64,000 nucleotides of DNA from Eledone cirrhosa (taxonomy: Eukaryota). Of the stretch, positions 8,813 to 9,731 are shown in pieces (the stretch's first letter is position 1; every line of letters begins with the position of its first letter). The stretch spans positions 61,008,001 through 61,072,000 of the forward strand of contig OZ024747.1 in NCBI GenBank assembly GCA_964016885.1, given 5' to 3'. The translations under genes were made by a program, and so were the position numbers. The notes under the pieces are model-generated. The model was not told the origin of the DNA. It saw nothing but the letters and a program-made list of their open reading frames with translations, and did no database searches.

Positions 8813-9177
8813 ATACAATGATATTAAATAAATGGAAACTATATTTATAAAACCATATTTATTCTATTATATATATTTCAAGGGTACCAAAACTTTGGTA
8901 CGCTCTCATCAGATAAAATACAAACTTTGTTTTATAAATGTTGACATAATCAAGAAAAGATACCTTAAGGGTTCAAGTTTTCCTTGGAAGGAAAACTTGA
9001 ACTGTTAAGGTATCTTTAAACCGTTAAGGTACCCTTGAAATATATATAATAAAATAAACATGGTTTTATAAATAATATCATTGGATATTATACTCCAGAA
9101 AACCTGTTGAGTGCTCTGAATCAGTTATAAACATTTATATTTGTTGAATTACCAACAAATTGAATATCCCTTTTGCT
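8813..9177 (-). mobile_element. Small PLE-derived fold-back with hammerhead and one-sided tail
   Basis: Arms ~8843-8888 / 9028-9074, internal hairpin 8957-9016, tail with TACTC(9091)...GAGTGC(9109), flanked by (TA)n. Confidence 0.7.
8860..8920 (-). ncRNA. Type I hammerhead ribozyme
   Basis: Minus strand TATTTTAT-CTGATGA-GAGCGTACCAAAGTTTTGGTACCCTT-GAAAT-ATAT-ATA-ATAGAATA; all three stems can pair. Confidence 0.8.
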
Positions 9178-9360
9178 TATATATAATATATATATATTTA
9201 TTATTATTATTATTACTATTATCTGAGTTCAAATCCCGCTGAGGTTAACTTTGCCTTTCATCCTTACGGGGTCGATAAAATAAAGTACCAGTAATACACT
9301 GGGCAATTGCTGGCTTTGTTCCTAACGTAGAAACAATTATTATTACTATTATATATATAT

Positions 9361-9731
9361 AATATATTAACAAATGGAAACTATATTTATAAAACCATAT
9401 TTATTTCATTATACATATTTCAAGGGCCACCAAAGCAGATTATGGTGCGCTTTCATCAGATAAAATATAATATAGATTAGTTTTATAAATAAATATTGAC
9501 ATGCCCTGAAAAAATGCAACCTTCACGGTTGGAGTCTCCTGGATAGGAGCGCACCATAATCTGCTTTGGTGGCCATTGAAATATGTATAATGAAATAAAT
9601 ATGGTTCTATAAATATAGTTTCCATTTGTTAATATATTGTATATTTACTCCAATAAATATGTTGAGTGCTTTATATCAGTTATAAAAATATTTTGCTTGT
9701 TGTATCCCAACGAATTAAATATAACCTCTAC
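9361..9731 (-). mobile_element. Small PLE-derived fold-back, relative of 8813-9177
   Basis: Arms 9361-9451 / 9548-9638, tail with TACTC(9646)...GAGTGC(9664), flanked by (TA)n. Confidence 0.75.
9402..9467 (-). ncRNA. Type I hammerhead ribozyme
   Basis: Minus strand TATTTTAT-CTGATGA-AAGCGCACCATAATCTGCTTTGGTGGCCCTT-GAAAT-ATGT-ATA-ATGAAATA. Confidence 0.75.

Follow-up and report, generated by a model that had tools for sequence, protein, structure and literature searches.

How Penelope-like elements (PLEs) make inverted copies, and what role the hammerhead has, are posed as open questions in the available parts of PMC8557442 and PMC11167929. Both questions are raised by two short fold-back elements, E1 (8811-9177) and E2 (9352-9731), that lie close together in a 64,000-nt stretch of Eledone cirrhosa contig OZ024747.1 (hereafter the window), AT-rich DNA of animal type that is rich in microsatellites and carries one abundant dispersed repeat. 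A preliminary description of this DNA had placed the start of both inverted arms inside stem II of a hammerhead and suggested that the ribozyme hairpin promotes the template switch or fold-back priming behind the inversion. Whether stem II does set the inversion point is the question addressed here.

Layout of E1 and E2

Each element is a head-to-head inverted repeat within a TA run (Table 1), and the two are 71% identical over 429 columns. In both, a complete type I hammerhead motif is found in the left arm, whose sense direction is that of the minus strand, and the right arm is sense on the plus strand and begins within stem II; the inverted parts (8842-8888/9028-9074 in E1, 9352-9451/9548-9647 in E2) are 96% identical in each case. 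Pattern matches and arm comparison thus bear out the preliminary description, which had recognized hammerhead-bearing pLTR fold-backs with minus-strand motifs whose inverted arms start inside stem II and so lack CTGATGA. The two short arms do not begin at the same point of the stem: counted from the C of CUGA, the first position is +24 in E1, which falls within the 3' strand of its stem II (7..32), and +8 in E2, the second base of stem II (7..37). The E1 short arm has in addition a 16-nt deletion, and its tail spans about 9089-9177. The inverted pLTR carries a tail at one end only, as in insertions of EN+ PLEs; the target was AT-rich or (TA)n, with which the loose ends of family contigs agree, and neither element contains an ORF for RT plus GIY-YIG, as expected of 5'-truncated copies.

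Table 1. Features of E1, E2 and the neighbouring element (window positions)
Feature	Positions	Strand	Remarks
Neighbouring larger inverted Penelope-like insertion, related family	5624-8292		Arms of about 1 kb
Neighbour hammerheads	5748-5816; 8187-8255	-; +	Pattern matches
Neighbour GIY-YIG remnant	6634-7193	+	ORF
Candidate 17-nt target-site duplication, E1	8799-8815	+	Matches interrupted TA run 9178-9194; low complexity, tentative
E1 long arm	8811-8985	-	pLTR from ~75 nt upstream of core, through whole hammerhead, to internal 3' end without tail, in (TA)n
E1 type I hammerhead motif	8860-8920	-	Stem I 8920-8913/8867-8860, CUGAUGA 8912-8906, stem II 8905-8880, GAAA 8879-8876
E1 predicted cut	between 8868 and 8867	-	
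E1 inner palindrome	8956-9017		30-bp arms, apex 8986-8987; snap-back copy of 5' end of long arm
E1 slipped second copy	9018-9031	+	14 nt, part of snap-back arm
E1 short arm	9028-9177	+	Starts at +24 in stem II, without CUGAUGA; runs to distal 3' end
Fragment of abundant dispersed repeat, between E1 and E2	9200-9351	-	Many matches of 85-95% across the window
E2 long arm	9352-9546	-	Complete hammerhead; 3' end without tail
E2 type I hammerhead motif	9402-9467	-	CUGAUGA 9459-9453, stem II 9452-9422, GAAA 9421-9418
E2 predicted cut	between 9410 and 9409	-	
5-bp hairpin at 5' end of E2 long arm	9536-9549		Homologous to E1 snap-back apex
E2 short arm	9548-9731	+	First base at +8 in stem II; extends to distal 3' end, with tail at 9645-9731

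The join in E1 comprises three steps, namely snap-back copying of 30 nt, a 14-nt slipped copy whose final four bases (9028-9031) are common to the 3' strand of stem II, and a jump at this shared 4-mer into that strand. The inner 62-nt palindrome (8956-9017; 90% over its length) and the slipped copy are absent from the preliminary description. The snap-back took place some 75 nt upstream of the core, at a small hairpin; its homologue in E2 is the end of the long arm, where the final two bases of the hairpin belong at the same time to the short arm as its first two. Because E1 snaps back upstream and the E2 long arm ends at the homologous hairpin, the fold-back point lies upstream of the ribozyme, stem II being the place at which the second arm starts. 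The involvement of snap-back or template switching, as had been suggested, is borne out, a snap-back with 30-bp arms being seen directly in E1; that stem II is the trigger is not supported. Among reads of the family, a further joint, 9546 to 9660, and the end of one contig fall at the hairpin site; that the hairpin is the true 5' end of the element is at most a conjecture, since some family contigs run past it.

The 2-4 nt shared at the joins of E1 and E2 occur only or mainly in stem II. The E1 4-mer has two places in the E1 sense pLTR, its donor site and stem II; the E2 join surely has 2 nt in common with the beginning of stem II, or perhaps 3, the third base coming from the thin end of a 0.7-agreement consensus. 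Both the E1 4-mer and the 3-mer adjoining the E2 join are found in stem II and nowhere else downstream. The GC content of stem II is 46-48%, against 25% elsewhere. The arms of E2 share rare states (T at 9565 is present in less than 10% of the depth in runs X1 and X21), and therefore both arms derive from one source.

Other structures of the window deserve mention. The repeat fragment between E1 and E2, which we take to be SINE-like, belongs to the abundant dispersed repeat that forms clusters of nested direct and inverted copies at 48350-50170, 35310-35815 and 25560-26335. Four further hairpin-shaped insertions (31803-32270, 47597-47972, 58125-58381 and 16080-16201) are 74-91% self-complementary; two are flanked by TA runs, and none has a clear hammerhead motif.

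Hammerhead motifs, family and neighbouring element

The hammerhead pattern matches the minus strand at 8860-8918 and 9402-9465 as well as two copies in the neighbouring insertion, and these four matches in the window compare with none in 100 shuffles, a control of specificity and not of discovery, as the pattern was derived from these very sites. The cores of E1 and E2 consist of CUGAUGA, GAAA, a UH cut site and an AUA triplet, and in both motifs stem I is AU-rich and 8 bp in length, stem II is long and contains a C-C mismatch, and the 2 bp of stem III are closed by a self-complementary loop; the stem III hexamers are self-complementary in E1, in E2 (with G-U) and in the neighbour. In the accessible text of PMC4209133, PLE hammerheads are likewise of type I, with a long helix II and a short palindromic helix III suited to dimer cleavage, and opposite-strand pairs 100-700 bp apart are already reported. 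By comparison, E1 and E2 have one whole motif per element, carry the AUA triplet and lack the G10.1-C11.1 pair (G-U in E1, A-U in E2 and the neighbour), which the same text gives as highly conserved and which is not one of the catalytic core positions. E1 and E2 also have U at 11.1 and 15.2, whereas their relatives studied here mostly have GAAAC and GUH. Rfam gave no hammerhead match within 8800-9740 at E<=10, 15 of 15 matches being to models of other families, and a further Rfam search had none among the 150 of 195 matches listed.

Support from folding is modest: with z-scores of -2.43 and 0.05, E1 is predicted to fold into the motif and E2 does not stand out. Helices I and II pair in both elements. 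Of the natural covariation that had been claimed for stem II, E1 and E2 show only one clean two-sided change (T-A versus C-G), with a bulged G in E2, and stronger covariation is found in the loose-end consensus letters of other family copies. In a read-through transcript, the duplex formed by the two arms is predicted to enclose the motif of either element, and in-place cleavage of these copies is therefore unlikely. A solo hammerhead motif at 54845-54931 on the minus strand, whose stem I differs and is fully paired and whose stem II is long and branched, has 23 nt in common with E2; no inverted partner was found for it.

E1 and E2 are the pLTR ends of a multi-copy Penelope-like family, as seen in four sequencing runs (4714 contigs; 28578 and 31596 reads; 54 contigs), two of them RAD-seq, with reads placed on 9452-9731 in one orientation and the small-share runs X6-X20 left aside. 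As many as 73 contigs have their loose end at the internal 3' end (9644 in E2 numbering, followed by TA repeats), and in E1, E2 and the neighbour alike one arm ends at this internal site and the other about 87 nt further on, a signature that defines the tail. In the tail lies a near-palindromic octamer, GAGYRCTY (9664-9671 in E2, 9109-9116 in E1, and loci L004-L109), mostly 59-76 nt past the predicted cut; of 37 distinct hammerheads, 20 have it in the 140 nt downstream and 2 in the 140 nt upstream, in related families that are not independent of one another, and is a candidate protein-binding site between the two start sites.

The neighbour at 5624-8292 carries marks of the Hydra clade. Its protein, with 4550 relatives at E<=0.001, ends in an endonuclease with conserved CxCX5C linker, CxxC and CxH, features shared with the C-terminal GIY-YIG of that clade in the available part of PMC8557442; also in common are the hammerhead in the 3' pLTR and the (TA)n target, to which the clade is directed according to the same source. 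RWK/RWR and DKT motifs, as in the RT of the clade, are seen in two long homologues (P0117 and P0123, one with a weak RT match) and would be a tentative mark for the neighbour, the window itself having no RT. E1 and E2 have no coding part and are linked to the clade through pLTR likeness only, the E2 3' end aligning weakly along the whole length of the neighbour's pLTR and tail (score 31), so that their parent, too, would belong to the Hydra clade. The Naiad clade was rejected as an identity, Naiads having an N-terminal endonuclease and no canonical hammerheads in the accessible text of PMC8557442. No Pfam family was returned for the neighbour's ORF, a search of longer proteins retained 0 of 686 candidates, no autonomous parent of E1 and E2 was found, and the family-specific hammerhead pattern had no match in metagenome contigs. 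In the neighbour, moreover, the 3' UTR is rich in purines and internally duplicated, and the zinc finger is preceded by an N-rich stretch.

Inversion junctions relative to the hammerhead

The probability that both joins of E1 and E2 fall in stem II by chance is 1.2-3.5%, and that both fall anywhere in the hammerhead 6-17%, the latter being the fairer test as the feature was chosen afterwards. Further junctions of the same family were taken from the family reads (the 15 of 29 joints and 12 of 45 between-letter positions that were listed). The intact hammerhead appears there as the expected strand-change joint in four entries; these were set aside, as were three short joints of the go-back kind and a joint that is likely tail-to-tail, and three entries ending at 9660 were merged. 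At least ten other inversion-type junctions are present among the entries listed, with short arms starting at -6, about +38, +40, +46, +69, +73, +85, up to +120, +140 and +174; strands at opposite-strand joints were inferred, and some contig joints have fewer than 30 letters on one side. None of these ten lies clearly inside stem II (7..37) and two are ambiguous, against 1.1 expected, and four fall in the whole hammerhead against 2.4 expected (P 0.19). Read depth has its minimum at the E2 junction (in X21, 686 reads over 9540 against 115 over 9559, many of them intact-hammerhead reads), and this junction is therefore not a shared feature of the family.

For related families, 19 head-to-head junctions from 91 loci encoding related endonucleases and 39 stretches of genome G001 were curated by hand and their positions recomputed, the automatic orientation having been confused by flanks; that of L044 comes from the automatic step and that of L049 in part from it. 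Left out were L023 (-1167, uncertain), tail-to-tail pairs and palindromes that could not be mapped to the pLTR, and G002 yielded no useful hammerhead set. Two of the 19 fall in stem II (L100 at +8, L128 at +11); within -130..+110 this amounts to 2 of 14, against 1.2 expected (P 0.33). Over the whole hammerhead, 9 of these 14 compare with 3.5 expected (P 0.002-0.009 in four versions of a plain uniform null), in a sample that was found via hammerheads and endonuclease genes, required visible arms and may be biased; this clustering is a lead. Several assemblies filed as bacterial (L081-L091 of G001, L084, L086) contain Penelope-like elements of animal type within TA repeats, a sign that host DNA may be present in them.

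Mapped onto the structure in this way, the junctions do not single out stem II, at 0-2 of the 10 listed for the family and 2 of 19 among relatives, which is chance level. It is one of many landing sites, which its position as the GC-richest part may perhaps favour. That stem II stalls or primes the enzyme and so sets the inversion point, as the preliminary description had it, is accordingly quite unlikely: the two joins of E1 and E2 (P 0.012-0.035), the junctions of L100 and L128 and the enrichment of relatives' junctions over the whole hammerhead speak for it, but E1 starts in the 3' strand whereas the E2 arm has passed the whole helix, the E1 snap-back lies elsewhere, and the neighbour is joined at -836.

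Probable twin priming and competing origins

The layout of E1 and E2 is mostly ordinary. In the parts of PMC3846280 and PMC8557442 that were available, EN+ PLE insertions are likewise head-to-head, 5'-truncated inverted copies with a tail at one end, and have in common with E1 and E2 a palindrome at the junction or at the pLTR 5' end, microhomology joins and TA-repeat targets; E1 and E2 differ in having no ORF and a tail of about 87 nt instead of the published 30-40. Non-LTR retrozymes, in the accessible text of bioRxiv 10.64898/2026.07.22.740005, share with them a non-coding nature, a type I hammerhead and derivation from a pLTR, but are head-to-tail tandems with a motif in each unit, whereas E1 and E2 are single head-to-head fold-backs; no such tandem is seen in either, and a few short go-back joints occur elsewhere in the family.

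The polarity of the tail, on which no statement was found in the available parts of PMC3846280 and PMC8557442, bears on the mechanism. Of the 11 scorable insertions, 10 have a tailed arm that is shorter at its 5' side than the other arm (one-sided binomial 12/2048; 11 of 22 were not scorable), namely E1, E2, the neighbour, L100, L109, L103, L106, L090b, L083 and L081; L027 is of opposite polarity. The arms of L106 barely overlap and those of L081 do not overlap at all, as predicted by twin priming on one RNA. Both layouts recur in another genome: L109 repeats that of E1, with a snap-back followed by a jump into the hammerhead at +28, and L100 that of E2, at +8. A purified anole element cuts and extends both target strands, with two start sites that define the tail and uncleaved RNA as template (PMC11167929, in the part available). 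Tail polarity, little or no arm overlap and this two-strand, two-site enzyme together favour twin priming.

E1 and E2 are thus probably two separate, heavily 5'-truncated Hydra-clade insertions made by twin priming and microhomology joining, with an optional snap-back, a reading drawn from sequence comparison. Both cut target strands would prime reverse transcription. One would do so some 55 nt past the predicted cut, at the internal site, copying uncleaved RNA as far as a recurrent stop 75-87 nt upstream of the core and giving the long tail-less arm; the other would prime some 87 nt further 3', at the distal site, and stop early, giving the short tailed arm. The end of the long cDNA may first snap back, by 30 bp in E1, before a head-to-head join of the two cDNAs, for which they would use 2-4 bases that they share. 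LINE-1 twin priming has the same geometry, with an internally primed cDNA that reaches further 5' and joins the end-primed cDNA. Here, in comparison, the position of the internal site is fixed, and an overlap of 50-100 nt between the arms is frequent. This overlap counts against twin priming, one RNA not easily serving both primers, and two RNAs, tandem pLTRs or strand displacement must therefore be assumed; the polarity of L027 counts against it as well. A literature search that fell short of most subscription papers and of supplements found no publication applying twin priming to PLEs and none mapping PLE junctions on the hammerhead.

Alternatively, a single cDNA may have folded back and copied itself from stem II outward, with a later template switch adding the tail, an explanation close to a self-priming proposal in the accessible text of PMC3846280, where palindromes at inverted junctions are also proposed. 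The snap-backs of E1 (30-bp inner palindrome) and L109 (15-bp), copies with a perfect apex (L123, L124, L073, L090a) and the rare variants shared between arms, which in E2 fit self-priming on one cDNA equally well, argue for it; yet it cannot yield the non-overlapping arms of L081 or the barely overlapping ones of L106, and an extra switch is needed to put the tail on the copied arm in 10 of 11 cases, which makes it unlikely, if by no means negligible. The elements could also have been near-perfect palindromes at first, a later microhomology deletion in the DNA having removed part of one arm; the available part of PMC3846280 reports deletions of this kind in these elements, E1 keeps its central palindrome, and the same arm has another deletion, of 16 nt. 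Random loss should strike either arm, however, and with the tailed arm the shorter one in 10 of 11 this is very improbable. More improbable still is a MITE-like, non-autonomous fold-back amplified as a unit, in which the two junctions would go back to one inherited event: the long arms of E1 and E2 do end at the same homologous hairpin, in a multi-copy family, but the junctions differ, each short arm matches stem II of its own long arm, depth is lowest at the junction, and at least ten other junctions occur among the family entries listed.

With their layout already published, E1 and E2 by themselves add little to what is described. Short fold-backs record both cDNA stop points within 400 bp, and a genome-wide map would thus be a cheap test, for which tail polarity and hammerhead-wide clustering, though not stem II alone, are leads worth following. 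Beyond the twin priming favoured for E1 and E2, PLEs in general might integrate by a programmed form of it, with two start sites on opposite strands in fixed roles and the hammerhead setting the distal cDNA stop, as a roadblock in its folded state and also by way of the ends of cleaved RNA; this broader proposal is speculative and doubtful as it stands. It touches on the 5' ends of L126 (1030-1078) and L081 (6180-6230), which lie exactly at the predicted hammerhead cut, and on L123 and L124, perfect fold-backs that start one base past it. These ends are a possible genomic trace of cleavage in vivo, against which the accessible text of PMC11167929 reports no RNA ends at the cut and cleavage that is dispensable in vitro. 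If the proposal is true, the ribozyme would shape the insertions of these elements, and the insertions would be genomic evidence of its cleavage in vivo.
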